Numbered from the stretch's first letter, positions 37,942 to 62,943 are shown. The stretch is 64,000 bases of DNA from Candidatus Poribacteria bacterium (GCA_965242965.1 OZ251518.1:2400001-2464000); one strand, 5' to 3'. Made by a program: numbers and translations. The notes: generated by a model not told the origin, from the letters alone.

Positions 37942-39372
37942 ATGAACGCACAAAAAACCGTGCTGATAGTCGATGCAGACCGGCGGCAGCGCGACCGGAT
38001 TTGCCAAACGCTCAGTGGACAAGGCCTCCGCCTGATTGTCAAAGACAATATGTATCAGGCGTTTCACCAGATCGAATATCAGAAGATAGATGTCCTCATC
38101 GCCCCGCTGAAGGCAGAACGGATTGACGGCTCGGCACTCTTGGAAGCCGCGGCGCAGCAGCATCCGGATGTCGGTATCATTTTCATTACCGCGCCGAATG
38201 TGTTGGAGACTGACATCGGCATCAAGGCGATGACCGCGCATGAAGGCACCTATTTTCTCCCGAAGCCTGTCAACCCTGTCCATCTGAAGGCACTGCTACA
38301 GCGCACGCTTCAAATTCAGCAGCTGGCGTTTGAAAACCGGCAGTTGCAATCGCAAATCGACGAGAAGGAAGGCTTACGCCGCATGACAGGACAATCGCCG
38401 CAAATGACACGCGTGCGCGAGATGATTACCCAGATCGCGCCGACAAGGGCGACGGTGATGATATACGGTGCGCGCGGCACCGGCAAGGAACTCGTCGCCC
38501 GGGCGGTGCATCATCGCAGCCTGCGGCGCGGCTCCCTCATCGCCTTTAACTGCGCGACGCTCAACGAAAACCTCGCCGAATCGGAACTCTTCGGACACGA
38601 ACGCGGCTCGTTTAGCGGCGCGTATAACCAACGGAAGGGACGGTTTGAACTCGCGCACGGCGGAACGCTGTTCCTTGACGAAGTCTCGAAACTGAGTATA
38701 TCCAATCAGGCGCGCCTGCTGCGCGTCCTCGAAGAACGCGAATTTGAACGCGTCGGCGGCTCAAAGACTATCAAAGTTGACGTCCGCGTCGTTTGTGCAA
38801 CGAATAGCGACTTGGAACTCGCTTGTCAAGAGGGGTATTTCCTCCCAGACCTTTATGACAGGCTCAACGTTATCCCTATCCATTTGCCGACGCTACATGA
38901 ACGGATAGAGGATATCCCACTGTTAGTCAAAGATTTTCTTGAGGAATTTTGCCGCGAAAATAAGAAACAGCGGATAACCCTCTCACCGGCGGCAATCCGA
39001 ACTTTGATGAAATACGAGTGGCCCGGCAACGTGCGCGAGCTGAAAAATTGCATCGAGGGACTCGTCGTCATGTCCACGCATACCCGCTTGGAACAGGCTG
39101 ACCTGCCGGAACGTATCCTCAAGGCGGCTGGCGTGATGATGTCAAACATCGTTTCGGTCCCGACGCTGCGCACGGCAGCACCATCGGACACCGTCGGCCC
39201 GCCGAGTCTCAACGTAGAAATCGGCATGTCAATGGACGAGATTCATCAGGAAGTGCTGCGCGCCACGCTGGAGTATGTTGATAACAACAAAGCGAAGGCG
39301 GCGAAAATCCTCCAAATCAGCCGACGCACCATTCAACGGAAGGCGAAAGAATATGGACTCTGCAACAATTAG
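37942..39372 (+). CDS. NtrC/AtoC-type AAA+ enhancer-binding protein with atypical receiver domain and Fis HTH
   Basis: [57 protein letters not shown]. Confidence 0.9.
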
Positions 39373-39955
39373 CGCGAAGCGAACAAATCCCATAATTCCG
39401 GCATCCGTTTTCGGATTTCACGTGCAAGCCGGTGGCGGTGCTGCGGATTCAGCCGGCTTTCCGCTTCAACTTGCGGATATCTTCGGCCCCATTTTGGGAG
39501 TGCTGCTGCCGACGCTTATCCTCGTTACCGTTGCGATAGTCGTCTATGGCCGGATTCGGCGCAGCAACCCAAAACCGGAAACGCCGCGTCCTGCGGCGCG
39601 CGCACCTCAACCCCGGCGGGGAGATACGCCCGAGGCGCGAGCATTGGAGGCGTTGGATTTTGCCCTTTACAACCGCGCCGAGCCCACAATTCGCGAATAC
39701 TACGCCAGCATCGCGTGTCTGATCCTGCAGTATCTCAGCGATAAATACCAGATTAAGGTGCATGAAGCGACAACGACGCAGATTCTCGCCGATGTCGCCG
39801 ATGCGCTGCCGGCGAACCAGATCGACTATGTCGGCGAAATTCTCCACACGTGTGATATGGTGCAGTTTACCCCGCATCATCCGACGCGTTCGGAACAAGA
39901 CGACATTTATGAAACGGCGCGGGATTTTCTGGAGGGGCAGGCGAAGGGTTTATAG
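39353..39955 (+). CDS. hypothetical single-TM protein
   Basis: TM segment then a helical domain with YLSDKY..TT.QI and DMVQF. Confidence 0.6.
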   Translation: MDSATISAKRTNPIIPASVFGFHVQAGGGAADSAGFPLQLADIFGPILGVLLPTLILVTVAIVVYGRIRRSNPKPETPRPAARAPQPRRGDTPEARALEALDFALYNRAEPTIREYYASIACLILQYLSDKYQIKVHEATTTQILADVADALPANQIDYVGEILHTCDMVQFTPHHPTRSEQDDIYETARDFLEGQAKGL

Positions 39956-40020
39956 CCACACTTCGCGGGAAGCACGTTCAGTTAACTTGACAAGCATTTT
40001 TGAAATATGTTATCATAATT

Positions 40021-40286
40021 GAGGAGGTTTCATAAATCGCTCAACGTCGCGGTGATATGCCCCGCGCTACGGTAAAAAAACGCCGCCCCTTCACGTAGGG
40101 CGAGGGTCTGTCCCTCGCCATGCGTTTTGGTGTCAGACCGCCTCACGCCTGTAGTTCAGGATCGCCTGATCCTGACCCGTTCGAGATCGGGCGATCTCGA
40201 ACTACAGAGGTGGGCCCGATGCCTGCCGGTATTCGCCCTCCCTCCAAGGCGGGATAACTACCGAAACGGAGTTATGAAACACCCTC
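40021..40286. mobile_element. MITE-like element with REP mosaic
   Basis: TIRs GAGGAGGTTTCATAA / TTATGAAACACCCTC; flanks TCATAATT / GTATAATT; directly after TTGACA(39987)-N18-TATCAT. Confidence 0.75.
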
Positions 40287-40331
40287 GTATAATTAGCGTA
40301 GTTTCTAACGCGTGCGGTGTCAATCCACATA

Positions 40332-40400
40332 ATGGAATTTGAATGGGAGAAAAACAGAGCGGCAGTGTATCGAGAAGGCGGTGACATCAATGCAGGATGA
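40332..40400 (+). pseudogene. internally deleted BrnT-family toxin
   Basis: Translates MEFEWEKNRAAVYREGGDINAG*: a BrnT-like N-terminus joined directly to a C-terminal stub overlapping the antitoxin start. Confidence 0.6.
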
Positions 40401-40611
40401 ACTTCGGCCTGAGTATGATTTGAAAAACATGCAGGTTAGGAAGGTAGGACCCGGGCGAAAGTATTTCGCAGGGAACCCCGTCATCTACCTAGAACCCGAT
40501 GTTGCGGCGGTATTTCCAGACGCTGCGGCTGTGAACGAGGCACTGCGGTTTCTGATGCGCGTCAGCAAGGAAAATCAGGCAGGATTGCCTCGCGTGAGTA
40601 GCGATGCCTGA
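40390..40611 (+). CDS. BrnA-like antitoxin
   Basis: DELRPEYDL...IYLEPDVAAVFPDAAAVNEALRFL. Confidence 0.65.
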   Translation: MQDELRPEYDLKNMQVRKVGPGRKYFAGNPVIYLEPDVAAVFPDAAAVNEALRFLMRVSKENQAGLPRVSSDA

Positions 40612-40626
40612 ATCGTAACATTCTTC

Positions 40627-40665
40627 TTGACATTTTGATGCAAGCATGTTATCATTAAAATGTCA
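40627..40665 (+). promoter_or_regulatory. promoter with overlapping inverted repeat (candidate operator)
   Basis: TTGACA-N17-TATCAT; TGACATTTT (40628-36) / AAAATGTCA (40657-65). Confidence 0.6.
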
Positions 40666-40677
40666 CTAGAGAACTCC

Positions 40678-40781
40678 GTTCACATGGAGTCAGGGTGAAA
40701 GTTTAGAGGAGCTCTCATAGTCCAAACGGATAGAGCAAATTAAGGCACGCGCGCAGAAGGCATCTGATTTGTCATAAGTGA
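40678..40781 (+). pseudogene. remnant of the 3' end of the PAPS-reductase-family gene
   Basis: 40678-40710 is identical to 48406-48438; 40763-40781 is identical to 48580-48598; in-frame TAG and internal deletion. Confidence 0.85.
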
Positions 40782-40791
40782 AGGTGTTTAC

Positions 40792-41415
40792 GTGAAAATA
40801 GCTGAGTTTCAAGGAAGCGAAATAGTGGAGGTCCCGAAACACTCCGGTATTTACGCGTGGTATTATCGCCCACAAGCATCTGGAAACAACGTCTCTGGCA
40901 TCCTAGGACAGTTGATAAAGACTCCCTTTCGCGTGAAGACCGAAATTGCTATGCGATATCGGGTAATCTGGACAGCGGAGTCCGAAGCCGAGGTTCTCCA
41001 CGGTGCCGAACTCCACCCTGCAGACCAGGTTGTGGCAAAGATAGTTACCGATGGCGGCGAACTCATCAAATCCTTGCTTCAACAGGCGATGGTGCCTTAC
41101 TTTGCAACACCTCTCTATATCGGAATTTCCCGAGACTTATCTCGGCGGGTGAAGGAACACTACGATTCCTTGACGCAGCTCTGGGAAACAGATGCACCCG
41201 TAAGCAATTATCTTGAACAGAATCCCGATGCAGCGGTCGAAGAGGTTCTGAATCAGTTTGATTTAAACCATTCATTTCCGCTCAACGCAAGAGTCAAAGG
41301 AATAGCCCCGAGCGATCTGGTAGTCTGTGTTTTTCCTGTTGAGGATCAGGAAAAACTGCGAGACTTAGAACAAATTCTTCAGATTCTCGCCGATCCAATT
41401 TGTGGTAGGAGATAA
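40792..41415 (+). CDS. GIY-YIG-like nuclease
   Basis: PKHSGIYAWY ... LYIGISRDLSRRVKEH ... LE. Confidence 0.75.
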   Translation: MKIAEFQGSEIVEVPKHSGIYAWYYRPQASGNNVSGILGQLIKTPFRVKTEIAMRYRVIWTAESEAEVLHGAELHPADQVVAKIVTDGGELIKSLLQQAMVPYFATPLYIGISRDLSRRVKEHYDSLTQLWETDAPVSNYLEQNPDAAVEEVLNQFDLNHSFPLNARVKGIAPSDLVVCVFPVEDQEKLRDLEQILQILADPICGRR

Positions 41416-41419
41416 GCCG

Positions 41420-43717
41420 ATGTCAACCATGTTCAGTGTCGCCAAAAACCCCATTTTCGGATCTTTTGGGGAATTTACAATTGGTGACAACTCAAATACC
41501 CTTCGGGCCAGATACCTTCTCACGAAAATCAGGCCGGGGAACGATGGCACTTGGGAATGCGAGTTGGCATCCCAAATGAAGCCATGGCGCGAAGTCTTCA
41601 ATCTTGAACAGTTGAGTTCCGATGAACTTTTACAACGAGAACTGGACGATTCGCGCGTAGCGCATGACCTCATCCCCTATCTGCTCGGTGAATCCGGAGA
41701 TAGAGCAAAGTTCTTTCCGCCGATTCTCGCCGTAATCGTCCCGCGTAAGCAGGGTGGCTCTGGAATTGAAGGGTTTTATCCGGCTCGGGAGGCTCAAGGC
41801 GCATCGGTTGAGCATTACGGCAATCTGTTTGATTTTGAGCGAATTGAATGGGGAGGTGAACTTACCCCACTCGCGCGTCTCAACTATAATCGGCAACGCG
41901 CCGCGTTCATTATTGTTGACGGCCAACATCGCGCTATGGCTGTGCTCGCTCTGCACAGGCAGTTGAACCAGAACTGGGGAGATAACGCCTTCGCCGCTTA
42001 CTACGAACACATCAAGGTGACACCCGAACAAGTCAAAAGCATTGAATTGCCGACGTGTATCATCTATTTCCCAGAGCTACATGATGGGAATCCGCTGCCG
42101 CGACAACAAGGTATCAATTTAAACTCCGTTTGTCGGGAGGTATTCCTAGTCGTCAACCGAAGTGCCAAACGTGTGAGCGCGGTGCGCGAGTGCTTGCTAG
42201 ACGACGAGGATATCGCCGCACGCCTGATGCGCCGAACCCTCTCAACGCTGAAAAACCGCGGCGAAGAACAGGGTGACTTAGCCCGAATTTATTCAATTTC
42301 TTATGGCGATTCAGACACCGAAACCGGAGAAAAAGAGGTAGCCTCCCGGCGACTTGAATATAGCAGTGCCATTGCGATACATAAGAGCCACAGCGCGATC
42401 GCTTTCGGTGTTAACGAAGGGTTTAAGTTAAAAAATCCTCAGGACATTTCGGAACGGTGTAAAACCAAAAACATCAATCGTCCATCCGAAATCCTACTGG
42501 GAACGAGTGTGGAAGATTACCGAATCCTCGCGCGCAATTCAGGGAAAACACTCCCAACCGCCGAAGTCGACGTAGTCGTCGAAAAACTGGGGAACTTGGC
42601 AGACGCTGCTTTGGTGCGACTTTTCGACCAATTTCGTCCGTTTCAGGTTCATAATGCCGAACTCCGAAAATTGAGACTGCGGCTTTCAGATGTTCATCCT
42701 GATGCTCAGAGCGAACAGAAGAAAGCGTATACGCTGATTTTCGAGGGAAGCGAGGAGCGGAACGTCTTTGACTCACATTTCAGGCGGCTGAGTTATGAAT
42801 GTGAGCGCGAGGGGCAAACAGTCCCACCGCACCTCCTGAATCAGATAGATTTCTGCAAGTCTGTTAAGCAGGCACTCGGCGAGCACGAACGCGAATTCCA
42901 ACGCCGCCGCGCATGCAAATTCTTCGGAATAAACCGCGCCCTATTTGATAGTGACGATCATCGGGAAGACCGCGCATTTCTGAGTAACAAGGCACGAAAA
43001 CTCTTCCTAACCGTGTCAACCCAAGCGTTTCAGTTGGGCTATGCCATGGCGATTTTCACCGTCGTTGAAGAGTTGAAACGCGGGAGACCGGATGCCTCCC
43101 CTTTGCTGTATCACGACAGGCTGAAACTTGTCGAATTCGTGACAGAGGCATATCTCGCTGCGCTCAACACTTACTTTTCCCCCAAGGACGATACGGTTCA
43201 TCAGGGGCTTGCTGGCTACATCTGCGAGCCGCGGGCATCGGTTTTTGATGCAAATTCTCCGGGGCTTCGCGGGCTCTTGGCGATGAGCGTCAATGAACTG
43301 AACGAACGCCAATGGCGATTTTTCCGCTACGCCATTTTAGAGATTGTCCACTCGCCGTTCTGCTGGCATGCTGCTCAGAAAAAAATGAAGCAGATGGACT
43401 GCGAATGGGCACTAACGTGGTATAAAGAATCCATCCCCAAATTGGTGGAGGGTATTCTGTCCGAACGTGCAAAGTATGTTGAGGATGCGCTGGAAGCGGG
43501 CATCAAAAGTCGCGATTTTGAACTGCTGAAAATGCGCACGGAATCTGAAGCGAGAGATGTCGGCAAAAGCGAAGAACGCATCCGGCAACTTGTTGAAAAA
43601 CTTCAGCATTCCCATCGGACCACAGCAAAGCAAAACGCGCTTGACCACCTCAAGGCAAGTTTAGAAACCGTTGAATCCAAATCGGAGATGATCCGACGTT
43701 TACGCGATAACTTTTAG
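41420..43717 (+). CDS. large DGQHR-domain (DndB/ParB-like) protein
   Basis: LLQRELDDSRV, FFPPIL, IVDGQHR, EVFLVVNRSAK. Confidence 0.8.
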   Translation: MSTMFSVAKNPIFGSFGEFTIGDNSNTLRARYLLTKIRPGNDGTWECELASQMKPWREVFNLEQLSSDELLQRELDDSRVAHDLIPYLLGESGDRAKFFPPILAVIVPRKQGGSGIEGFYPAREAQGASVEHYGNLFDFERIEWGGELTPLARLNYNRQRAAFIIVDGQHRAMAVLALHRQLNQNWGDNAFAAYYEHIKVTPEQVKSIELPTCIIYFPELHDGNPLPRQQGINLNSVCREVFLVVNRSAKRVSAVRECLLDDEDIAARLMRRTLSTLKNRGEEQGDLARIYSISYGDSDTETGEKEVASRRLEYSSAIAIHKSHSAIAFGVNEGFKLKNPQDISERCKTKNINRPSEILLGTSVEDYRILARNSGKTLPTAEVDVVVEKLGNLADAALVRLFDQFRPFQVHNAELRKLRLRLSDVHPDAQSEQKKAYTLIFEGSEERNVFDSHFRRLSYECEREGQTVPPHLLNQIDFCKSVKQALGEHEREFQRRRACKFFGINRALFDSDDHREDRAFLSNKARKLFLTVSTQAFQLGYAMAIFTVVEELKRGRPDASPLLYHDRLKLVEFVTEAYLAALNTYFSPKDDTVHQGLAGYICEPRASVFDANSPGLRGLLAMSVNELNERQWRFFRYAILEIVHSPFCWHAAQKKMKQMDCEWALTWYKESIPKLVEGILSERAKYVEDALEAGIKSRDFELLKMRTESEARDVGKSEERIRQLVEKLQHSHRTTAKQNALDHLKASLETVESKSEMIRRLRDNF

Positions 43718-43787
43718 ATGCCTGTCTTCGCGCAGCTCCTATAACTTGACAAGCACTTTTGAAAATGGCAATTTTACTGGAAGTATC

Positions 43788-46700
43788 ATGAACAACATAT
43801 CTTTGTCCGACATTTTTAGCGTTAACAGGCGTTTTCAGCGTTCGGTTCATCTGGAACGCGATTTCTATACCGAAAATGCCCTAGACGGTTACATCATAAC
43901 AAACACCGTTCGCGATACATTATCACGCGTCATTTACGCGCTTGAGCAGCGCGCAACATCAAAAGCGTGGTCTCTCACTGGCCCCTATGGTTCTGGGAAA
44001 TCCGCGTTCGCGCTTTTCACTACGAAGTTGCTCGGTGATTCTGCTGCACCGACAACCCAACAGGCTTCGCAACTGCTCAAACAAGCGGACGCAGCATTAT
44101 ACCAGCAATTCATTAAAGCAAAAGGAAAAGGTCGGTTGTCTCCCGGTTTCTGTCCTATCCTCATAACGGGAGAACGTGCCCCCATTACGCTTGCTCTCCT
44201 GCGCGGTTTGGAACAGGGACTTACTTCTTTCAATCGAACGCTGTTCTCCGATTTGCTTCTTCAGGATGTCAAAAACCTGCTGCAAACAGCAGACAAAGGC
44301 TCTCTTCCGCGCGCTTCTGAGATTACAGCCCTTTTTGAAACGGCGACACGGCAAATCTGTGCAGATGGAGGTTCAGGGATATTGCTGGTAATTGATGAAC
44401 TTGGGAAGTTCATTGAATATGCGGTGCAGCACCCGGATCGCGGAGACGCATTTGTCCTCCAAAGTCTCGCCGAATTTGCCTCGCGCAGCGGAAAAACCCC
44501 GCTGTTGCTATTGACAATTCTCCATCAGGCTTTTGAACAGTATGCACAGCGGGCCGCGAAATCCCAACGCGAAGAATGGGCAAAAGTGCAAGGACGGTTT
44601 GAGGATGCCATCTTTGCGGATTCCACCGAGCAGGTCCTCCGGCTCATCGGCGAAGCATTAACAACCCGTTCGGAACTCGTTCCAAAAACCAACTTCGCGA
44701 TTGCGGTTGACTTGGAACTCAAACCGCGGCAACTTGACGAGCACGAATTTATTCAACTGCTGGAAAGGTGTCTCCCCCTTCACCCGACAGTGGCACTCCT
44801 AATCGGTTCCCTTTTCCGGCGGTTTGCACAGAATGAACGTTCCTTATTCGCGTTCCTCGGTTCAAATGAACCCCACGGGCTCCAAGATTTTCTTTTGAAC
44901 CAATTTTACGATGGACGCGCGCTGCCGCTGTTTTCATTGGCGAATCTGTATGACTACATCAATACCGCGCTAGGAAATCGGCTGTATGAGTCGCGCGATA
45001 GCAAGAAATGGTCAGAAATTGAATCGGCAATTCAGCGTCTGCCAGATCCGTCTCCGATGACAGTCAGCCTGATTAAGACTATCGGTTTGCTCAATGCTGT
45101 GGGAGAGGTGAGCCGGAATCTGAAAGCCTCAGATCAGGTGCTCCGTTATGCGTTAGACGATGGCACGGCAGAATTCGCCGAGGAATTTACAGATGCGCTG
45201 GAGACGTTAGAAAAACGGTCTATTGTCACCTACCGCCGTTACAACGATGCGTATGCTCTCTGGGAAGGGAGCGACATTGACATTGAGACTAAACTCCGCG
45301 AAGCGTCAAAACATGTCAATCCGAATCTGCGAGTGGCAAAAGACCTGGAGAGACTTCTTCCCCAGCGGCCGCTTATCGCCAAACGGCACCTATTTCAGAC
45401 TGGCACCACGCGCTACTTCAACGTTCAGTATTCAGAACTTGAAACCTTTGAGGCGGATTTGCGCGCACCACTCGATGATGCAGATGGCCTTGTCCTCTAC
45501 GCATTGCCCGAAGATGAACTTGAAGTGGCGCAGCTCGTCGAAAAGGCATCCGCGGCGGAAGCCGCAAACCGAAAAGAGGTCTTGGTTGCCATTCCGCGCT
45601 CCATCGGTTTTTTGCGGGATGCTGTCCTTGAGTTGGCCCACCTGCGCTGGATCGCAGAAAACACCCCAAAGTTGAAAGGCGATGCAACCGCAAGACATGA
45701 ACTCTTATCGCGGTTAACCGTAGCGGAACATGATGTGGCTTCGCGCTTGGAGGCAATCTTTGGCGAGCACAGCGAGAAGACTTGCATCTGGTACCACAAG
45801 GGACGACCGGTGCAGATTGACTCGCAACGCGCGAGAAACGCCTATCTGTCAACTATCTGCGATGAGGTTTACGACGAAACTCCTATCCTGCAGAACGAAC
45901 TGATCAATCGGCATAAAATATCTGGTTCAGTGACAACCGCCAGACGAAAACTGATTCAGGCGATGCTTGAAAATGGAGGCGAGGAGAAACTCGGCATCAC
46001 CCGCTATCCACCAGAAATAACGATTTACGTTTCCATGTTGTCAACTACAAGTATTCACCGTCCAGTTTCGGGAGTGTGGGGATTTCACCCACCTGAACCT
46101 TCCGATAAAAACAGAATGGGCCCCACGTGGAAAGCGATTGAAACGTTCCTTGGCGAATGTGAAGTCGCGCGACAACCTGTCGTGAAACTCTACGAACGCT
46201 TGTCCGCACCACCACTAGGCGTGCGAAGCGGGCCGCTACCTATTCTGTTATGCGCCGCGATGCTCCACTACAAAACAGAAATCGCGCTCTACGAAGACGG
46301 TTCCTTTGTCGCCGACGTTTCAATGCCGGTTTTTGAACGCCTGATTAAGGCACCGGAGAAATTTGAATTAAAGCGGTTTCGGTTGGCAGGAGTCAGGACA
46401 GACGTGCTTTCGCAATTGGGGGGAGTGCTCAAACAACCAGCAGCGGCAGACACGCCAGACCTGCTAACGATAGTGACACCCCTTATGCGTTTCATTGCTG
46501 AACTCCCAAAGTATACGTTGTTAACGCAAACGTTGAGTGAGGAAGCGAAAAATCTCCGCAAAACCGTACTGGATGCACGCGAACCCGACATGCTCATCTT
46601 TGAGCAGCTCCCCGAAGCCATGGGGTGCCCTCCTTTTCGCATTGACGCAACATCCGATGCAAACGCCATTGATACCTTCTTCAAAAAGCTGCAAGACGCA

Positions 46701-47282
46701 TTGGCAGAAATAGGCGGGGCTTACGATATCCTGCTGAACTCCATTGAGCAACTCCTCGTCTCGGCGTTTGCTTTAAAACAGACGAACGAGGAACTTCGCA
46801 GGGAGTTGGCTGACAGAGCTGAATCCCTGTTGGCAGTAACGGTTGAGACGCGGCTCAAGGGATTCTTAATTCGCGCCTGCGACCTCGGTTTGGATTTCAC
46901 CGGCTGGCTTGAGGCGATCGCCACCTTCCTCGCCAACAAACCGCCGAGTTCGTGGAACGACACGGACAAGGCTCAATTTGAGGTGAACCTCTCCGAATTG
47001 GCGCGGAAGTTCCATCATTTTGAAGCGGTGTCTTACGAAAATCGCTCCCACGTCGAACAACCGTCGGCCGGTGAGTCCATTCGGATTGGCATCACCAGAG
47101 CGAATCAACGCGAGCAAGAACGGGTTGTCGCTTTGCCATCACCAACCGAGGAACAGGCTGCCAAACTTGAGCACGCGATTGAGGAGGTTTTTGAGAAATT
47201 CGGGATCGCTGAAAACACCGAACATTGCCTCGCTGTCATCGCGCGATTATCAGAAAAATTGATGCAACAACTAGAAAATTGA
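43788..47282 (+). CDS. large P-loop ATPase, SspC/BrxC-like
   Basis: RFQRSVHLERD, Walker A GPYGSGKS, Walker B LLVIDELGKFIEY, EWAKVQGRF, PLHP, QNERSLFAFL. Confidence 0.75.
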   Translation: MNNISLSDIFSVNRRFQRSVHLERDFYTENALDGYIITNTVRDTLSRVIYALEQRATSKAWSLTGPYGSGKSAFALFTTKLLGDSAAPTTQQASQLLKQADAALYQQFIKAKGKGRLSPGFCPILITGERAPITLALLRGLEQGLTSFNRTLFSDLLLQDVKNLLQTADKGSLPRASEITALFETATRQICADGGSGILLVIDELGKFIEYAVQHPDRGDAFVLQSLAEFASRSGKTPLLLLTILHQAFEQYAQRAAKSQREEWAKVQGRFEDAIFADSTEQVLRLIGEALTTRSELVPKTNFAIAVDLELKPRQLDEHEFIQLLERCLPLHPTVALLIGSLFRRFAQNERSLFAFLGSNEPHGLQDFLLNQFYDGRALPLFSLANLYDYINTALGNRLYESRDSKKWSEIESAIQRLPDPSPMTVSLIKTIGLLNAVGEVSRNLKASDQVLRYALDDGTAEFAEEFTDALETLEKRSIVTYRRYNDAYALWEGSDIDIETKLREASKHVNPNLRVAKDLERLLPQRPLIAKRHLFQTGTTRYFNVQYSELETFEADLRAPLDDADGLVLYALPEDELEVAQLVEKASAAEAANRKEVLVAIPRSIGFLRDAVLELAHLRWIAENTPKLKGDATARHELLSRLTVAEHDVASRLEAIFGEHSEKTCIWYHKGRPVQIDSQRARNAYLSTICDEVYDETPILQNELINRHKISGSVTTARRKLIQAMLENGGEEKLGITRYPPEITIYVSMLSTTSIHRPVSGVWGFHPPEPSDKNRMGPTWKAIETFLGECEVARQPVVKLYERLSAPPLGVRSGPLPILLCAAMLHYKTEIALYEDGSFVADVSMPVFERLIKAPEKFELKRFRLAGVRTDVLSQLGGVLKQPAAADTPDLLTIVTPLMRFIAELPKYTLLTQTLSEEAKNLRKTVLDAREPDMLIFEQLPEAMGCPPFRIDATSDANAIDTFFKKLQDALAEIGGAYDILLNSIEQLLVSAFALKQTNEELRRELADRAESLLAVTVETRLKGFLIRACDLGLDFTGWLEAIATFLANKPPSSWNDTDKAQFEVNLSELARKFHHFEAVSYENRSHVEQPSAGESIRIGITRANQREQERVVALPSPTEEQAAKLEHAIEEVFEKFGIAENTEHCLAVIARLSEKLMQQLEN

Positions 47283-47464
47283 CATGACTAGATCGTAGGA
47301 AGGGAGTTCGTGTGGTTAATCTGGCAAGGGGTTTCCTTGTCGCAGATAGGAAACCTCTTCCGGTCCGTAAGTCCTAAAGAGATGTTTTCCCACAATGCGC
47401 CGTTTCCGATGCTTTCTGAAATGTTGCAAAAACCGTGGAATCTGACATCACAACAAATTTTAAT

Positions 47465-47559
47465 TTGACATTTTGCTGAAAATGTAGTATAATTAAAATA
47501 GCAATAAAATCTATAGCAAACGTTTTTTGTTTGCAAATTTTGGATTTTTATGGTATACT
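47465..47559 (+). promoter_or_regulatory. two tandem sigma70 promoters upstream of the PAPS reductase-like gene
   Basis: TTGACA-N17-TATAAT (47465-47493) and TTGCAA-N17-TATACT (47531-47559). Confidence 0.7.
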
Positions 47560-47779
47560 ATACGAAACGTTGTTAATTGCGTTGGTTCGTGAACGGCTGC
47601 AGCATTGAGGCAGCACTCGGATTCATCGCAGCGAATGAAGTCGCGCGGCGGTTTTGAGAAATTACGCACAATTTTCATTCGCGTTAAAACACGTAGTTCA
47701 AAGGTGGAGGCAGTCAATTTGCAGATTCGGCACTGCAACTCCGTAAAGCCTATTTTATAGTAGCCAACAGGAGCAAAGC

Positions 47780-48598
47780 ATGGAAGAAAAAATACGCCAT
47801 CTCCTCGGCCTCTCCGGAGGCAAAGACAGTTCAGCGCTCGCCGTTTATATGCGAGACCGCGTGCCGCAGATGGAATACTTTTTCTGCGACACCGGGAAGG
47901 AACTGCCAGAGACTTACGAGTTTCTGGATCGGTTAGAGGCATTCCTCGGCAAACCGATCGCGCGCCTCAATGTAGAACGTGACTTCGATCATTGGCTCAC
48001 GCTCTACGGCGGCCTGCTGCCATCGTCGCAAGTTCGGTGGTGCACCTATAACCTCAAGATTAAGCCGTTTGAGGAATACGTAGGCGAGGACAAAGCGTAT
48101 CACTACATCGCGATTCGCGCCGACGAAGATCGCGTTGGCTATAAACCGCCGAAAACAACCGCGCTCCGAAGCATCGAACCCAAGTATCCTTTCAAGGATG
48201 ATGGCATCACCAAAGAGGATGTCTTCCGCATCTTGGAGGAAAACGGGATCGGTTTACCCGCCTATTACGATTGGCGGACGCGCTCCGGGTGCTACTTCTG
48301 CTTTTTCCAACGCAAAGCAGAATGGGTGGGGCTATTGGAAAAGCATCCTGACCTTTTTGAACTCGCCAAGGGTTATGAAAAATTCGACCCGGATACGGGC
48401 GAACGGTTCACATGGAGTCAGGGTGAAAGTTTAGAGGAACTCTCGGAACCTGAACGGATAGAGCAGATTAAGGCACGCGCGGAGAAGGCTACTGCCGCTA
48501 AGAAAACGGCGCGTCCCAATCGCCGCCTCATCGATATCCTCACCGATGTCCATGATGATGAGGATGACGATGAGCCTTGTCTGATTTGTCATAAGTGA
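47780..48598 (+). CDS. PAPS reductase family protein, SspD/DndC-like
   Basis: PP-loop SGGKDS, DTGKE, RWCT..LKI.PF, IRADE, RSGCYFCFFQ, C-terminal CLICHK. Confidence 0.85.
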   Translation: MEEKIRHLLGLSGGKDSSALAVYMRDRVPQMEYFFCDTGKELPETYEFLDRLEAFLGKPIARLNVERDFDHWLTLYGGLLPSSQVRWCTYNLKIKPFEEYVGEDKAYHYIAIRADEDRVGYKPPKTTALRSIEPKYPFKDDGITKEDVFRILEENGIGLPAYYDWRTRSGCYFCFFQRKAEWVGLLEKHPDLFELAKGYEKFDPDTGERFTWSQGESLEELSEPERIEQIKARAEKATAAKKTARPNRRLIDILTDVHDDEDDDEPCLICHK

Positions 48599-48614
48599 GA
48601 CTTAGAGGTTCCTA

Positions 48615-49499
48615 ATGGATCGGGAAACACTTCTCGAAAAATTCACAAATCTCCGGCAATGGAACAGGGGTGCGGAGAGAGCACCGCATAAACCCTTGCT
48701 AATCATATACGCCATCGGCAAATTGCTGCGAGGTGAGGGCCGACTGACTCCATTTGCCGAAGCAGACGTGGACGTTGGAAAATTATTGCGGGAGTTCGGC
48801 GGGCGACAATCAAAACAGGGAACCCAGTATCCTTTTTGGCGGTTGCGCAACGATAGCATCTGGGAAGTAACCGATGCAGCCCTGATGTCCCCCAACTCCA
48901 GTGGGGACGTGAGAAAAAGCGAACTCCTCAATCTTAACGTTGCTGGTGGTTTTCACGAAGCCATTGCTGAACAACTCCAAAATGACACAAGTCTAGCTTT
49001 TGAAATAATTCATAAGCTGTTAGACATGCATTTTTGTGATGGAATGCATAGTGACATTTTGCAAGCCGCTGGCATTGAACTGCCCATCAAGGTTTTTGAA
49101 ACCAAGATGCGAACATCCAACTTCCGAGAAAAAGTCCTGAGAGCCTACGAATACAGATGTGCTGTCTGCGGTTTCGATGTGAAATTAGGAATACTTCCTC
49201 TCGCGTTGGAGGCCGCTCATATCAAATGGCAAGCGTTCGGCGGTCCTAATGAAGAGGTGAATGGACTGGCTCTTTGCGTCCTGCATCATAAGTTATTTGA
49301 CCGTGGGGCTTACACTTTGTCGCCCCAATGGGAAGTCCTGATATCAGATGATGCACACGGGTCTGTTGGTTTTGAGGAATGGCTGATGCGGTTCCACGGT
49401 AAACCAATTAACTTTCCGCAACGGCAGTCCTACTATCCGGGTGCAGATTTCATCAGTTGGCACGTCAACGAGGTGTTCCAAGGGGATTACCGGGAATAA
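48615..49499 (+). CDS. SBD-HNH endonuclease (phosphorothioated-DNA-binding restriction endonuclease type)
   Basis: N-terminal APHKPLL and QYPFWRL sulfur-binding-domain motifs; C-terminal CAVCG, EAAHIK, NGLALCVLHHKLFDRG. Confidence 0.8.
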   Translation: MDRETLLEKFTNLRQWNRGAERAPHKPLLIIYAIGKLLRGEGRLTPFAEADVDVGKLLREFGGRQSKQGTQYPFWRLRNDSIWEVTDAALMSPNSSGDVRKSELLNLNVAGGFHEAIAEQLQNDTSLAFEIIHKLLDMHFCDGMHSDILQAAGIELPIKVFETKMRTSNFREKVLRAYEYRCAVCGFDVKLGILPLALEAAHIKWQAFGGPNEEVNGLALCVLHHKLFDRGAYTLSPQWEVLISDDAHGSVGFEEWLMRFHGKPINFPQRQSYYPGADFISWHVNEVFQGDYRE

Positions 49500-49549
49500 T
49501 CCACTGAGCACACTTCATCCACAGTCAAAGTGTGTTAAGGATAAAAATC

Positions 49550-50521
49550 ATGGCAAATGTTCAGACTTACTTCAACAAGTTTCATGATACCATCAGAAGA
49601 AGCTATAACGACAATAGCATTCTGAGGGATAAGAGGGATCTGCTTTTACGGGATCTACAAGAAGGGCTGCGGAGGTACGCCTTGGCCTCTGGCATCAAAA
49701 TCCCGAGATACGAGCACTTCAATCAGGGCAGTTACGCGATGGATACCGGGATTGAACCGCTCTCCGGCGAGGATTATGATATTGATGTCGGCTTGACTTT
49801 TCATATATCAGCGTCGACCTATTCCCCCGTTGAGGTCAAGCAGTGGGTTTACGAAGCCTTGAACTCCGGGAACAGAACGGTGGAGTACAAACGTCCTTGC
49901 GTGAGGGTCCAATATCATCGGAAAGGGGAGGAAATCTACCACGTTGATTTTGCTGTCTATTCCGGAAAGGCCTATAATTGGGACAATCAGACCTATCTAG
50001 CAAAAGGCTTTTTGGGATCTGCCCCCGAAAACCAGGTCTGGGAAATTTCAGAACCGCATGGACTACTGGAAGCATTTCAGCAGAAATTTCCGAACGAAGG
50101 AGATCGAAATCAGTTTCGGCGAGTTATCCGATTCCTGAAGCGGTGGAAAGACGTGAATTTCACTGCGGAAGGAAACGCGCGTCCCACCGGGATTGCGCTG
50201 ACAGCGTGCGCCATGAATTGGTTTCAGCGTGGACTGGTTTATCGGGCTGCTGTTGGCACCAATTATGATGACTTAACAGCACTCAGGAACCTTGCTGAGT
50301 CAATCCTAAGTCAGTTTGATTTTGGGAATCGGATAAGTGTCAGACTACCTGTTCCACCACACAATGATCTGTTTGAGAAATTGAGCAACAAACAGATGGC
50401 AAACCTTGAAAGCAAACTTGCGGTACTCGTGACTTCCTTAACTCGGGCGCAAGAAGAATCTTCCTATGTTTCAGCATGCCGCATTCTACATCGCCTTTTC
50501 GGAGATGACTTTCTACCGTGA
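49550..50521 (+). CDS. cGAS/DncV-like nucleotidyltransferase (CD-NTase/SMODS) 1
   Basis: QGSYAMDT, DYDIDVG, KRPCVRV, HVDFAVY, IRFLKRWK, FGDDF. Confidence 0.85.
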   Translation: MANVQTYFNKFHDTIRRSYNDNSILRDKRDLLLRDLQEGLRRYALASGIKIPRYEHFNQGSYAMDTGIEPLSGEDYDIDVGLTFHISASTYSPVEVKQWVYEALNSGNRTVEYKRPCVRVQYHRKGEEIYHVDFAVYSGKAYNWDNQTYLAKGFLGSAPENQVWEISEPHGLLEAFQQKFPNEGDRNQFRRVIRFLKRWKDVNFTAEGNARPTGIALTACAMNWFQRGLVYRAAVGTNYDDLTALRNLAESILSQFDFGNRISVRLPVPPHNDLFEKLSNKQMANLESKLAVLVTSLTRAQEESSYVSACRILHRLFGDDFLP

Positions 50522-50605
50522 TAACCGGAACCAGCCGAATTTGGACAAGACTCGCGTAGTTTTTATAACGCTATGTTTTTCCATAACTAGAGAAGGTTAG
50601 TCAAA

Positions 50606-51553
50606 ATGGATGAGAAAATCAAAAGAATTCTGACAATTGATGGAGGAGGAATTAAAGGGGTATTCCCATCTTCCTTCCTTGCTACTGTTGAAGATTCAAT
50701 CAAAGACAACGTAGCAAACTATTTTGACTTAATCGTCGGTACCTCGACCGGTGGCATCATAGCTCTGGGCCTTGGGCTTGGATTATCAGCGCAGGAGATT
50801 TTGACGTTTTATGAAGAATCCGGACCTCGGATTTTTGGTGGGAATCGTCTTGGACGGTGGTTGAGAGGGCTTGGCATGTCAAAGTACAATAGCGACCCTC
50901 TTGAGGAAGCACTAAAGGAGTGCTTTGGGGAAAAGAAACTGGGCGATAGCAAAAAACGCCTAGTCATCCCATCAATGAACCTTGAAAATGGCGAGGTCTA
51001 CATCTACAAGACAGCCCATCATCCTCGATTGGAAAGAGATTTCAAGCAAAAGGTTGTTGATGTGGCCCTCGCAACCGCTGCCGCTCCAACTTATTTTCGC
51101 GCACATAGGTCGGATGGAGGAACCCCTCTAATTGATGGGGGTGTATGGGCGAATAACCCCGTGGGACTATCCGTAGTTGAAGCAATTGCGTTGCTTGACT
51201 GGCCAAGGGATTCTTTAAAAATCTTGAGTTTGGGTTGCACTCATGAACCATTAAACGTGAATTGGGGCAGAAAATTCTCACTAGGACGTTTATATTGGGC
51301 ACTAAAATTGTGCGACGTGTGTATGCATGCACAATCCCACGGATCCCTCGGAACAGCGCAACTTCTTGCGGGACATGATAACGTCATCAGGATTAACCCA
51401 TCCATGGCCAGCGGAAAGTTTGGTTTAGATAAAGCCAAGGAAATTTGCTCGCTCAAAGGTCTCGGAGTAGACCAAGCCCGAAAAGCGTTGCCTCAACTCC
51501 GCAAGGTTTTTATCAGCAATCCAGTAGAAGCATTTGAGGCTTTCCACAGATAA
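50606..51553 (+). CDS. capV: patatin-like phospholipase, CBASS effector
   Basis: DGGGIKG, GTSTGG, AAPTYF, IDGGVWANNP; flanked by CD-NTases. Confidence 0.85.
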   Translation: MDEKIKRILTIDGGGIKGVFPSSFLATVEDSIKDNVANYFDLIVGTSTGGIIALGLGLGLSAQEILTFYEESGPRIFGGNRLGRWLRGLGMSKYNSDPLEEALKECFGEKKLGDSKKRLVIPSMNLENGEVYIYKTAHHPRLERDFKQKVVDVALATAAAPTYFRAHRSDGGTPLIDGGVWANNPVGLSVVEAIALLDWPRDSLKILSLGCTHEPLNVNWGRKFSLGRLYWALKLCDVCMHAQSHGSLGTAQLLAGHDNVIRINPSMASGKFGLDKAKEICSLKGLGVDQARKALPQLRKVFISNPVEAFEAFHR

Positions 51554-51569
51554 ACGAAGGTGAAAAAAT

Positions 51570-52640
51570 ATGTTTACTTACTCAAACCAATTCAGTAGGT
51601 CTCTCGATCAGGTCATATCCCAATCGTTGGACATATCTGATGAGCACCACCAACTGGCGGTAGAACGCTATAAATCCATAGGTAACTGGCTAGAACGGAG
51701 AGGGTCTAGAGTCGCTCACTACCGTCCCGAAATCTATCCACAAGGCTCTTTTCTGCTGGGTACAGTTACGCGCCCTGTTTCCAACGCCGAAGAGTACGAT
51801 ATCGACCTCGTGAGCGAACTGAATCTTGAAAAATTCCGAATCAGCCAAGAAGGACTCAAGAACTTAGTCGGGGACGAAATCACGGCCTATGCCCGCACTC
51901 ACTATCTGGATCTGCCAAAGAATGGAAGGCGTTGCTGGACGCTGAATTATCCAGGCAATGCCCGATTCCACATGGACATCTTACCAGCGATTCCAGATGG
52001 AGAATCGTTCAAACAGACTCTCCTGTCAAACGCAGGATCGTTCCCGAATTTCTCTATTGCAATTGGCTTGTCAAGTTTTGCAATTGCAATTACTGACAGA
52101 GATCATTGCAATTACAATAGGATTGATCGGAATTGGCCTCGCAGTAATCCGAAGGGGTATGCAGCATGGTTCATGAACAGGGGACTCAACCGAGACCTGA
52201 CTGATACTCGGGCTGTTGAGGATGTCCCGGATCACAGCGTCAAAACACCCCTCCAGCGGACAGTTCAGATACTGAAGCGTCACCGCGACATCTGGTTTGA
52301 CAAGATGGTGAGGCAGCGCCGCTACAGACGAGACGATAAACCAATCTCTATCATCATTACGACGCTTGCGGCTCACGCCTACGAAGGCGAAAAAGACCTG
52401 CAAGAATCCCTCCAGAATATTGTAAGGAAGATGCCGAGCTCTATTGAGTGGCGATACGGTGGAGTCGCCTACGTACGCAATCCGGTGGATCCGTTGGAGA
52501 ACTTCGCTGACAAATGGCAGGAGCATCCTAGCCGAAAGGTTTGCTTCATGGACTGGCTTCAGCAGGTATCCGGGAAAATGAACGATTACCTGGCAAGGCG
52601 CGATATTTCGGCAATGAAGGCGTTACTACGGTTGCGCTAA
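51570..52640 (+). CDS. cGAS/DncV-like nucleotidyltransferase (CD-NTase) 2
   Basis: YPQGSFLLGT, EYDIDLV, RRCWTLNY, FHMDILPA, SNPKGY, LKRHRD, PISIIITTLAA, NPVDPLENFADKW. Confidence 0.85.
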   Translation: MFTYSNQFSRSLDQVISQSLDISDEHHQLAVERYKSIGNWLERRGSRVAHYRPEIYPQGSFLLGTVTRPVSNAEEYDIDLVSELNLEKFRISQEGLKNLVGDEITAYARTHYLDLPKNGRRCWTLNYPGNARFHMDILPAIPDGESFKQTLLSNAGSFPNFSIAIGLSSFAIAITDRDHCNYNRIDRNWPRSNPKGYAAWFMNRGLNRDLTDTRAVEDVPDHSVKTPLQRTVQILKRHRDIWFDKMVRQRRYRRDDKPISIIITTLAAHAYEGEKDLQESLQNIVRKMPSSIEWRYGGVAYVRNPVDPLENFADKWQEHPSRKVCFMDWLQQVSGKMNDYLARRDISAMKALLRLR

Positions 52641-52716
52641 GACAAAGGAGAGGTTGGAGAGGTGAGTAAGATAGAATCTCTTCGGGTCCTATGCACGTTA
52701 CCGAAGTGAAGCCCCC

Positions 52717-53502
52717 TCACTCCCCCAAAAGCCGCAACTTATTTTCATAAACCTGCCGATAATAATCCGCACGCTTCAGTTCCGATGCCGCCGCCTCGTC
52801 TAGCACGACGACGGTGCGGGGATGCATCTGCAATACGGAAGCTGGCACCTCTGCCGTAATCGGCCCCTCCACTGCCGCCGCAATCGCTGCCGCTTTCGAT
52901 GCGCCGTTCGCTAACAGCAGGCACTCCCGCGCCTCCATGATAGTGCCGACACCCATCGTAATCGCCAGCGTCGGCACTGCATCGATATCCCCCCCGAAAT
53001 GTGGCGCGTTCGCCGCTAAGGTGCTTCGCGTCAACGTCTTAATCCGAGTGCGAGAACCGAGTGAGGAACTGGGCTCGTTGAACCCAATATGTCCCTCTCT
53101 GCCGATGCCGAGGATCTGGATATCGATGCCGCCGGCGCGCGCAATCGCGGCTTCATAACGTTCACAAAACGCCCCGTGGTCTTCCGCAGTATTCTGCGGG
53201 AGATAGCGGTTCTCCTCCGGGATGTTGACATGCCGGAAAAAATGCGCCTCCATGAAGGTATGATAACTGGCCGGATGCGTCTTCGGTATGCCGACATACT
53301 CGTCGAGGTTAAAGGTTGTCACGGCAGAGAAATCGAGTCCCTCTTCGGTGTGCATTCGGACGAGTTCCTCGTAAAGTCCGATGGGCGTGCTACCGGTGGC
53401 GAGTCCCATGACGAGTTCGGGTTTTTTGAGGAGCGCGCGCTTCACGATATCGGCGGCGATGGCGACGAGGTGTGGATACGTCGGTTGAATGATAATTTCC
53501 AT
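52717..53502 (-). CDS. nagB: glucosamine-6-phosphate deaminase
   Basis: GLATGSTP, TFNLDEY, GIGREGHIGFNEP, ITMGVGTI. Confidence 0.95.
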   Translation of the reverse strand: MEIIIQPTYPHLVAIAADIVKRALLKKPELVMGLATGSTPIGLYEELVRMHTEEGLDFSAVTTFNLDEYVGIPKTHPASYHTFMEAHFFRHVNIPEENRYLPQNTAEDHGAFCERYEAAIARAGGIDIQILGIGREGHIGFNEPSSSLGSRTRIKTLTRSTLAANAPHFGGDIDAVPTLAITMGVGTIMEARECLLLANGASKAAAIAAAVEGPITAEVPASVLQMHPRTVVVLDEAAASELKRADYYRQVYENKLRLLGE

Positions 53503-53506
53503 GAGA

Positions 53507-54295
53507 TTACGCGGTGCCGGCGATGATGTTATCCATATCCTCGCTGATTTGATGGACGGTGCCTTCGGGGTTTTCTTTATCAACCGGAAGTTCAGCGGTG
53601 ATGTAGTCGTCGTAGCCGATGTCTGCGAGTGCAGTCATCACAGCGTTCCAATCGATGGTGCAGTCTTCGATCAGGTAGGTGAACCGGCGTTCCTCGGCGT
53701 TGAAGCCTTTCACATGCACTTTGGCGATGCGAGAACCAAGCGAACGGATCCAGTGTTGCGGGAAGCCGTAGAGGACGATGTTGCCCACATCAAAATACGC
53801 CGTGACAGCAGGGCTATCAAAGGCATCGATGTAACTGGCGAATTCAAAGGGACTGAGCAGGAATTTATTCCAGACGTTTTCAAGCGCAATGGTGAGTCCC
53901 TTCGCGGTGGCATGGGGAATCAACTTGCGGATTTCTGTATGCGAACGGTGGTATGCCAATTCATAAGGCGTGGCTTCGTTGACAACAGCCGGAACAAGTA
54001 GCACCGTGTCCGCGCCGATGGCTGTCGCCGTCTCCATGGACTCAAGCACTCCGTCGCGCGAGGCGGCGCGCACCGATTCGTCATCATCGGAGAGCGGGTG
54101 AGACCAGTGTTTGGCGTTCATGACGCTGAACAGCTCTATCCCGTGTTGCGTCGCGAGGTGTTTCGTCTGGAGCCGGTCTGCCTCATTTTCGAGGGTTCCG
54201 ATTTCCACGCCGTCAAATCCGGCGGCTTTTGCGAGTTTGAATCGGGCTTCGGTTGTGTCGCCCGGTAGTGAACCGATACAAATTCCTTTTTTCAT
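53507..54295 (-). CDS. sugar phosphate isomerase/epimerase (xylose-isomerase-like TIM barrel)
   Basis: AGFDGVE, ENVWNKFLLSP, YFDVGN, VHVKGF. Confidence 0.85.
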   Translation of the reverse strand: MKKGICIGSLPGDTTEARFKLAKAAGFDGVEIGTLENEADRLQTKHLATQHGIELFSVMNAKHWSHPLSDDDESVRAASRDGVLESMETATAIGADTVLLVPAVVNEATPYELAYHRSHTEIRKLIPHATAKGLTIALENVWNKFLLSPFEFASYIDAFDSPAVTAYFDVGNIVLYGFPQHWIRSLGSRIAKVHVKGFNAEERRFTYLIEDCTIDWNAVMTALADIGYDDYITAELPVDKENPEGTVHQISEDMDNIIAGTA

Positions 54296-62890: not shown

Positions 62891-62943
62891 CCCTCTTTCT
62901 TTCCCCAGCGCGCGGGACCGTCTGGCACCCGACAAAAAAACCG

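Follow-up and report, generated by a model that had tools for sequence, protein, structure and literature searches.

A putative GIY-YIG nuclease gene paired with a long DndB-like gene in Ssp phosphorothioation loci, and an apparently rearranged copy in Candidatus Poribacteria

We analysed a locus at positions 40792-49499 (+) of a 64,000-nucleotide (nt) stretch of a Candidatus Poribacteria bacterium genome (GCA_965242965.1, OZ251518.1:2400001-2464000; this whole stretch is referred to as the window). In this locus, two genes related to Ssp-type DNA phosphorothioate (PT) modification, sspC and sspD, are accompanied by a gene for a GIY-YIG-like protein and a gene for a long DndB-like protein with a DGQHR motif. 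The reading that we favour, to which we give about an even chance, is that the locus belongs to a clade of Ssp PT systems with an uncharacterised two-gene module, and that the copy in the window is rearranged and reduced. In this clade the writer genes sspB, sspC and sspD, together with sspA or a housekeeping cysteine desulfurase, would travel with the GIY-YIG gene and the gene for the DndB/DGQHR protein of about 770 amino acids (aa). The window copy would have kept the pair, sspC and sspD intact, lost sspB and a gene of about 815 aa with GHKL-like features, and retained the scar of an sspD pseudogene. It could then write PT only with an sspB and a desulfurase encoded at other sites of the genome, and it may no longer write PT at all. 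The module at the level of the family is the interesting part of the locus.

The gene pair in the window and in related loci

The locus consists of five co-oriented open reading frames (ORFs), all intact. The GIY-YIG-like gene (40792-41415, +) encodes 207 aa and is followed by the DGQHR gene (41402-43717, +), which encodes 771 aa from the first GTG; its likely start, M7 at 41420, gives 765 aa, the length of the database copy of this protein. The two ORFs overlap by 14 nt, or abut if translation starts at M7. After 28 nt comes sspC (43746-47282, +), with 1178 aa from a TTG and 1164 aa from the likely start M15 at 43788. A gap of 497 nt (47283-47779, +), non-coding and with no convincing ORF, contains a perfect sigma-70 consensus at 47465-47493 and separates sspC from sspD (47780-48598, +), which encodes a PP-loop enzyme of 272 aa from the 3'-phosphoadenosine 5'-phosphosulfate (PAPS) reductase family. 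Sixteen nt further on, the last gene (48615-49499, +) encodes a predicted PT-dependent restriction endonuclease of 294 aa with a sulfur-binding domain (SBD) and an HNH domain. A preliminary description of this DNA had reported five co-oriented genes with intact motifs, and both the ORFs and all of the named motifs were recovered.

Scanning one genome per species gave 31 loci that carry the DGQHR gene. A GIY homologue was found directly upstream of it in 24 loci; 19 of these paired loci also contain sspC and sspD, two have sspD at a contig end and three are cut by contig ends. The commonest order is sspB-sspC-sspD-GIY-DGQHR, with the pair sitting where sspE stands in canonical systems. Other arrangements were also observed, namely sspD-GIY-DGQHR-X-...-sspB-sspC in L003 and L004 and GIY-DGQHR-sspB-sspC-sspD in L016, and a conjugative plasmid of Asticcacaulis carries GIY-DGQHR-sspA-sspB-sspC-sspD, with a DndB-like protein 28% identical and an unannotated GIY-like ORF. 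Pairwise identities were correlated across the 15 complete loci, whose pairs are not independent (17 loci in which genes were incomplete or absent did not enter the analysis); rho reached 0.91 between GIY and DGQHR and 0.82 between SspC and SspD, and lay at 0.36-0.58 between the two modules. The earlier proposals that the two genes are coupled and that they occupy the effector position thus agree with this co-occurrence analysis: the ORFs overlap or abut, they are adjacent in most of the loci and their identities vary together, and in most relatives the pair follows sspD directly, at the site of sspE.

The DGQHR and SspC trees are broadly congruent, with the exception of L007, where the pair falls inside the window's clade and SspC is a distant outlier at 24% identity; by these tree positions, L007 represents one clear exchange of the module between writer backbones. 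Judging from predicted domains, the nuclease partner of the DGQHR protein is exchangeable as well. In L010 a true sspE (1081 bits with its PADLOC model) stands in place of the GIY gene, and L020, without a GIY gene, has an HNH-domain gene just after the DGQHR gene.

Some further observations concern these relatives. The DGQHR clade that includes the window's protein (nine rows, support 99/100) contains records labelled Poribacteria, Gammaproteobacteria, Bacteroidota and Latescibacterota, and this mixture of phylum labels therefore points to transfer of the module across phyla. A neighbouring gene of about 490-750 aa, not found in the window, was identified in eight alphaproteobacterial and cyanobacterial loci (L022-L029), examples of such genes being L025 12431-14386, L028 1655-3904 (-) and L032 664-2904 (-). 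The L032 gene, equated with the others by position and size only, is annotated in RefSeq as 'DNA phosphorothioation-associated putative methyltransferase'. L032 lies on plasmid A of Trichormus variabilis ATCC 29413, where the operon comprises sspB-C-D, GIY, a DndB-like gene, a helicase, an ATP-binding protein, a phospholipase D (PLD) gene and a desulfurase. Its GIY gene (8315-8998) is interrupted by an in-frame stop, and the annotation splits it into two hypothetical proteins.

The 207-aa protein of the window has GIY at residue 19 and YIG at residue 109; an insertion of about 85 residues separates the two strands. Residues G19, Y21, Y109, I110, G111, H123 and E193 are conserved in 16 of 16 orthologues, as is an arginine located 4-5 residues ahead of H123. 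The Pfam, PADLOC and NCBIfam scans gave no family match to the window protein at E<=0.01, and the Pfam GIY-YIG model (PF01541) produced a sub-threshold match to the YIG-R-H segment in 8 of the 16 orthologues. A profile search of 1.84 billion representatives identified 327 relatives, the best 150 of which are all stand-alone proteins of 75-273 aa. Forty more distant relatives were sampled; the GIY-YIG model recognised 14 of them at E<=0.01, with scores above the gathering cut-off in two cases, and the only other family found on these proteins was the related GIY_YIG_2, in 2 of the 14. For the AlphaFold model, with a predicted local distance difference test score (pLDDT) of 84, the best meaningful Foldseek match was R.Eco29kI (probability 0.94, TM 0.37, E 0.15). 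Against viral structures, Foldseek returned nothing at E<=0.001 and a few GIY-YIG proteins at probability 0.5-0.66, and an Atlas search with the protein gave leads only. The conserved residues and the predicted fold indicate that the protein is likely a divergent GIY-YIG-like nuclease. It shares the GIY...YIG...R...H...E pattern with R.Eco29kI and other GIY-YIG endonucleases, from which it differs in the very long insertion between the first two strands and in a sequence and fold similarity below significance.

In the long protein, the DGQHR motif lies at residues 173-177 and is invariant in 46 sequences of the family. The window protein itself scores below the cut-offs of the DndB model PF14072 (24.2 bits; cut-off 29.1) and of TIGR03187 (E 1e-7, 32 bits; cut-off 58.85), and it does not match the DndB equivalog TIGR03233. 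All 46 family members match PF14072 and TIGR03187 (E<=0.01), and 12 of the 46 match TIGR03233, weakly. The family is uniform, at about 768 aa, and a word-indexed search returned 436 matches, many of them named DndB or 'DGQHR domain-containing' in their source. In the model of the window protein (pLDDT 84), a beta-rich N-terminal part with the DGQHR domain covers about residues 1-290, and the C-terminal part, from about 320 to 771, is entirely helical. Compared with the PDB, the whole model gave no Foldseek match at E<=0.001 and only helical-repeat noise, and the family profile gave chance-level matches to PDB sequences; an Atlas search with the C-terminal half returned scores <=0.85 and no family. 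The hhalign probabilities of the family profile for SspE (1.7%) and DndB (17%) come from comparison with single sequences and are uninformative. The matches to the DndB models support a kinship of the window protein with DndB at the level of the superfamily (ParB superfamily) only.

A possible effector role of the pair

By analogy with SspE, the pair could act as a split sensor and nuclease. SspBCD would mark the host DNA with PT, for example as 5'-CpsCA-3', the DGQHR protein would bind DNA and nucleotide, read the PT status and control its partner, and the partner GIY nuclease would nick or cut invading DNA that lacks the mark. The two proteins would then form a split analogue of SspE, in which a ParB-like DGQQR GTPase stimulated by PT-DNA licenses a fused HNH nuclease (PMC13251355). 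A comparative study equates SspE with DndB (PMC10853773). We propose this mechanism because the pair occupies an sspE-like position and is tightly coupled, because its nuclease can be replaced by another, and because the pair itself has moved from one writer backbone to another.

Several observations weigh against this proposal. DndB, the closest named family of the DGQHR protein, is reported to act as a negative regulator of PT modification and not as an effector. The GIY-YIG assignment is sub-threshold, as Foldseek gave no match to the GIY model at E<=0.001 and the GIY family profile did not match any PDB sequence. None of the best 150 of the 327 GIY relatives is fused to a DGQHR domain. In five Hormoscilla loci (L013, L014, L015, L018 and L031) the DGQHR gene is an orphan, with no GIY or Ssp gene in the fetched DNA. 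Four of these five orphans adjoin a VapC-like gene (read from the sequence by eye), and the L031 copy was matched in two pieces, possibly owing to a frameshift. Finally, the pair of the cyanobacterial operons stands between sspD and sspA, and behind it come genes for a PbeA-like helicase, a GHKL ATPase and a PLD nuclease; these three could be the real restriction arm in the cyanobacterial relatives. As restriction-like genes of this kind follow the pair in some relatives, which have sspA at the other end of the operon, the pair may instead serve regulation or the modification side.

A role on the modification side, which is the main rival to a split sensor-nuclease but which we consider unlikely, would have the DndB-like protein tune the amount of PT and the GIY protein supply or assist a nick, so that in copies without sspB it could replace the nickase SspB. 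The DndB matches across the family are in its favour, namely those of all 46 members to the Pfam model and the weak ones of 12 members to the equivalog, as is the placement of the cyanobacterial pair between sspD and sspA. SspB is described as a nickase in PMC12914056, and both the window and L006, which has full flanks, keep the pair without sspB. However, of the 19 loci in which the pair is accompanied by sspC and sspD, only L006, L017 and L024 are without SspB and 16 contain it, so that the pair is not a general replacement for SspB. A modification-side role also fits poorly with a DGQHR protein of twice the length of DndB and with a conserved helical C-terminal half, with a nuclease that is swapped for HNH (L020) or sspE (L010), a pattern typical of effector modules, and with a pair that has switched to an unrelated SspC backbone (L007).

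Compared with known systems, the locus resembles SspABCD-SspE, described in Vibrio cyclitrophicus FF75, E. coli 3234/A and Streptomyces, in its SspC and SspD, to which the relatives add sspB and often sspA, and in the presence, at the usual site of the pair after sspD, of a ParB-superfamily protein and a nuclease. The difference is that SspE is one protein, with a DGQQR motif (DUF262) and an HNH-like DUF1524, whereas the pair consists of two proteins, with a DGQHR motif of the DndB type and a GIY-YIG-like nuclease. None of the genes of the locus matched the SspE models of PADLOC or GmrSD_N and GmrSD_C of Pfam, and the same library recovered the SspE of L010. The pair is also comparable to the accessory genes of SspABCD-SspFGH, being coupled to sspBCD and interchangeable between writer backbones, but SspFGH comprises three genes, and the two genes of the pair have no PADLOC match to SspF, SspG or SspH. 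With DndB of the DndABCDE system the long protein shares the DGQHR ParB-like domain, and RefSeq names its relatives 'DNA sulfur modification protein DndB'. In contrast, the protein has about 770 aa, against the 420 aa of a DndB-like neighbour in L004 and the 338 positions of the Pfam model, and carries the extra conserved helical half; it is linked to Ssp genes instead of DndCDE and, except in the orphan copies, is paired with a nuclease gene.

Neither the GIY nor the DGQHR protein has a model in PADLOC-DB 2.0.0, and the RefSeq labels on relatives of the pair are 'DndB' and 'hypothetical protein'. No description of an Ssp-linked pair of a GIY-YIG and a long DndB protein was found in the literature searched, although it may be listed in the supplementary tables of PMC8092258 or PMC10853773. 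The accessible text of a 2026 paper on SspE discusses SspE alone and names sspFGH and Dnd as compatible PT systems. The preliminary description had regarded the locus as an undescribed Ssp-like variant. This holds in that the pair appears undescribed, with no PADLOC match to SspE or SspFGH, and in that SspC and SspD are of the Ssp type; a self-contained gene set without SspB and the inclusion of the SBD-HNH gene did not stand, as detailed below.

Tentatively, and with somewhat less than an even chance in our estimate, the pair may represent a third class of PT-sensing restriction effector coupled to Ssp, after SspE and SspFGH: a split sensor-nuclease with a swappable nuclease (GIY-YIG or HNH) that has been transferred across at least eight phylum-level groups, on chromosomes and conjugative plasmids. 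In a published survey, 2,211 of 2,678 sspBCD clusters were without sspE and sspFGH, and its authors expect further partners (PMC8092258). With no known restriction partner, these clusters leave open how, or whether, the cell is defended. If such a third class were real, it could account for some of the sspBCD clusters (roughly 84% of all) for which no partner is known, and the pair is in any case a concrete candidate either for a missing sspBCD partner or for a new kind of PT regulator. Intact operons with the pair are present in cultured strains, for example on a Geminocystis plasmid, and Trichormus variabilis ATCC 29413 provides a natural GIY nonsense mutant.

Writer genes and the state of the window copy

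The window SspC, a large P-loop ATPase of the DUF499/DUF6079 type, scores 1112 bits with its PADLOC model PDLC02779 (residues 26-1094) and 655 bits with the best of the BrxC models; it has a Walker A motif (GPYGSGKS) at residue 79 and a Walker B motif (LLVIDE) at residue 213, and it is full length relative to its orthologues. SspD matched PDLC02782 over its full length with 386 bits and the Pfam model PAPS_reduct (PF01507) with 38.5 bits (cut-off 22.5); its PP-loop (SGGKDS) is found at residue 12 and it is 85% identical to the SspD of L001. On both window proteins the SspC and SspD models of PADLOC score above BrxC and BrxP. By these profile matches the window SspC and SspD are true Ssp-type proteins, which bears out the earlier assignment of a large ATPase and a PAPS-reductase protein to the Ssp type. 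BrxC and BrxP of bacteriophage exclusion (BREX) type 4, a system of BrxP, BrxC, PglZ and BrxL, are homologous to SspC and SspD; unlike that system, the locus has no PglZ, no BrxL and no fusion of a PAPS domain with DUF4007.

SspC and SspD were thus found in the 64-kb window, and the other two writer proteins, SspB and SspA, were not. The Pfam scan covered 61 ORFs of the window (in sets of 11 and 50) and the PADLOC scan, with PADLOC-DB 2.0.0, covered 28 of these (in sets of 11 and 17); outside the locus, the scanned ORFs were those of at least 90 aa that no longer ORF overlaps. Among the 61 ORFs there was no Pfam match to DUF4007, to a class-V aminotransferase (the cysteine desulfurase family), to PglZ or to DUF262/GmrSD_N, and neither a PglZ nor a Lon-like gene was present; among the 28 ORFs there was no PADLOC match to SspA, SspB, SspE or SspFGH. 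A tblastn search of the window with six SspB proteins from relatives returned only noise, up to E=50. The preliminary description, which had noted the absence of DUF4007/SspB, cysteine desulfurase, PglZ and SspE, is therefore confirmed across the 64 kb.

SspA is dispensable, as a desulfurase acting in trans (IscS) is established for Ssp (PMC8092258, PMC13251355). SspB is counted in the minimal writer set (PMC12914056), and its absence from the window weighs against the reading that we favour. Of the 20 relatives having sspC, 17 have sspB (DUF4007) adjoining it. Among the three loci with the pair, sspC and sspD that have no sspB, L006 has full flanks, with no sspB within 10 kb and every other gene kept. 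An SspB-like region was not detected by hhalign in the DGQHR protein (probability 0.15%).

In the preliminary description, the window contained an Ssp-like system that was complete in itself, worked without SspB and with a desulfurase of the host, and had all five genes, including the SBD-HNH gene, as its parts. The five genes are indeed adjacent, co-oriented and intact, the arrangement seems to recur in close relatives (as suggested by equal-sized contigs, described below), and the supply of desulfurase in trans would be in line with the Ssp literature (PMC13251355, PMC8092258). Nevertheless, we consider such a system very improbable. It conflicts with the presence of sspB in 17 of the 20 sspC relatives, with the absence of SBD-HNH from all 31 DGQHR loci and with a remnant of sspD that shows the window to be in a derived, rearranged state; in addition, DUF4007 occurs in 442 of 457 type-4 BREX taxa, underlining its importance to PT chemistry (bioRxiv 10.1101/2025.10.09.681413). 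Because most relatives keep sspB and the window bears a scar of rearrangement, its missing sspB is better read as a loss or a relocation.

The scar is a pseudogene remnant of the sspD 3' end (40678-40781, +), 104 nt long, which immediately precedes the GIY gene. Its first part shares 88-89% identity with sspD 48406-48494, and it then matches 48580-48598, including the stop, at 19 of 19 positions; about 85 nt are missing between the two matched parts, and there is an in-frame TAG in the sspD frame. The remnant also matches the sspD 3' ends of L001 (83%), L002, L003, L005, L006 and L008. An sspD remnant at this site indicates that the lineage once had the order sspD-GIY-DGQHR, as L001-L008 still do. 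Upstream of the remnant lies a promoter-like element (40627-40668, +) with TTGACA, a 17-nt spacer and TATCAT (11 of 12 consensus positions). A 74% identical copy of this element is found in the sspC-sspD gap at 47465-47506, with TTGACA-17-TATAAT (12 of 12). The region has seven promoter-like sites in total, which is not above the shuffle mean of 7.8, and promoter function is thus inferred only. The sspC-sspD gap gave no Rfam match and no similarity to the DNA of relatives, and the RNA fold of this sspD leader is no better than that of shuffles (z -0.13). A 23-nt repeat (22 of 23 identical) was observed at 39983 and at 43742, just before sspC. Seven of the eight other loci in the window's clade, L001-L006 and L008, have the gene of about 815 aa, which matches GHKL ATPases weakly, behind the pair; L007 and the window do not have it. 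Several steps were needed to produce the rearranged window copy, and its 'non-canonical' gene set is mostly a product of loss and rearrangement.

Despite these changes, few signs of decay were observed within the genes. In comparison with 14 other loci, the window departs at 2 of 34, 4 of 134, 3 of 104 and 2 of 82 otherwise invariant columns in the four Ssp-linked genes, and none of the departures lies within a named motif. The recurrence of the arrangement in close relatives was inferred from equal-sized contigs of protein clusters at >=90% identity, in which the gene order was not read. Contig sizes common to the clusters were 9680 (DGQHR, SspC and SBD-HNH), 8673 (SspC, SspD and SBD-HNH) and 7886 (DGQHR and SspC); further equal sizes among the clusters, that of the neighbouring patatin included, were 16345, 60768 and 5,736,848. 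This suggests that several assemblies of close relatives, at 95-98% identity, have the same arrangement, and an assembly artefact was set aside on this basis. A separate origin of the pair and the writer genes was also set aside, as the window DGQHR and SspC proteins both group with L001 and L002.

The product of the fifth gene matches NCBIfam NF045808 over its full length with 315 bits (cut-off 180), and its SBD region matches the structures of ScoMcrA and SprMcrA (5zmm, 1e-10; 7cc9, 1.6e-8). The sulfur-contact residues HK at 25 and YP at 72 are present, together with the HNH residues H..N..H from 202, and the family has at least 4250 members with PF13391 and PF26340. By these features the gene is a member of the known family of PT-dependent SBD-HNH endonucleases, with predicted activity; in its full-length profile match, its HK and YP residues and its HNH it resembles EcoWI and SprMcrA (and ScoMcrA, which has an added SRA domain), and it is unlike most SBD-HNH genes in lying directly after a PT-writer gene. 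None of the 31 loci found through the DGQHR gene contains an SBD-HNH gene, and we therefore regard it as a separate add-on and not as part of the conserved module, contrary to its earlier inclusion in the system. Homologues of SspC and SBD-HNH, at about 64% identity, were observed on equal-sized contigs (5907, 16203, 23291 and 32682), and an sspC(-sspD)-SBD-HNH pairing may be recurrent in this SspC clade. Characterised SBD-HNH members, EcoWI among them, cut GpsAAC/GpsTTC DNA, and fewer than 3.6% of the predicted PT-dependent enzymes are located near dnd clusters; three explanations for coexistence are named there, with the writer mutated, the nuclease inactive or the sequence contexts different (PMC7461809), and any of them may apply here. 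The SBD-HNH protein of the window probably acts on foreign DNA whose marks lie in a different sequence context.

A mutated writer leads to another explanation of the window, namely that its Ssp part is a disabled remnant: the arrival of SBD-HNH would have made PT harmful or useless, sspB would have been lost, and only SBD-HNH and the neighbouring genes of the type of cyclic-oligonucleotide-based anti-phage signalling systems (CBASS) would defend the cell. We judge this possible, though on the whole doubtful. It is compatible with the family-level reading of a two-gene module in an Ssp clade and differs from it only on the state of the window copy. The lack of sspB and of a desulfurase within 64 kb speaks for it, as do the sspD pseudogene scar with the altered gene order, the absence of the 815-aa gene that seven of the eight other clade loci have, and the rarity of such enzymes near dnd clusters, where a mutated modification cluster is one of the explanations named for coexistence (PMC7461809). 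However, none of the four Ssp-linked genes is shortened, their motifs are intact and they deviate at few invariant columns, and the arrangement seems to persist in related assemblies. The equal-sized contigs with SspC and SBD-HNH homologues suggest a recurrent and tolerated pairing, L006 has all the other genes although it, too, is without sspB within 10 kb, and the sspB of the window's genome could lie elsewhere. For the window copy, we see little difference in likelihood between a disabled writer, with only SBD-HNH and CBASS at work, and a system that still functions with an sspB elsewhere. The window copy is also a natural case of what remains of a PT writer beside a PT-dependent endonuclease, and it bears on conflicts between writers and readers over the same mark.

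Surrounding island and other features of the window

Directly after the SBD-HNH gene, at 49532-52640, a CBASS-type trio was identified. It comprises a cGAS/DncV-like nucleotidyltransferase (CD-NTase) of 329 aa (PADLOC PDLC00795, 357 bits), a patatin-like phospholipase (NF041079, 268 bits; cut-off 200) and a second, different CD-NTase of 356 aa (PDLC00770, 386 bits). An effector placed between two cyclases appears to be an unusual arrangement. The adjacency of SBD-HNH and patatin genes seems to recur in relatives, as suggested by equal-sized contigs (6587, 4356 and 4383). The Ssp genes, SBD-HNH and the CBASS genes lie together in a low-GC island (about 40300-52700) with values of 0.465-0.50, compared with 0.53-0.57 in the flanks. 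A sigma-54 response regulator (37942-39372) and nagB (52717-53583, -) border this island, which contains none of the genome's intergenic repeats. A 90-aa ORF at 40339-40611 matched no family and has no homologue among the 31 loci, and an Rfam search over 39000-53000 gave no family, with a single chance microRNA match (E 0.38).

The intergenic repeats are short and form a family for which BLAST gave about 70 matches within the window, at identities of up to 90% (over 185 nt); they look like repetitive extragenic palindromes or miniature inverted-repeat transposable elements. Examples were observed at 39956-40338, 62712-62895, 34701-34947, 12424-12556, 57380-57515 and 56006-56276.

Other defence-related genes were observed farther from the locus. 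At 24191-26876 there are four tandem PD-(D/E)xK paralogues (267, 201, 201 and 201 aa), each matching PADLOC PDLC01472 with 154-162 bits and none with a Pfam match. At 2575-6378 two tandem pairs were identified, each with an AAA_15/AAA_21 ATPase (494 and 399 aa) followed by a small family-less protein (187 and 172 aa); the ATPases are PD-T4-4_A-like and PDC-M47A-like, with 118-125 bits. Finally, a type II restriction-modification pair is located at 17331-19713, where a methyltransferase (PADLOC PDLC03249, 740 bits) overlaps a TdeIII-family endonuclease (PF09520, 257 bits).

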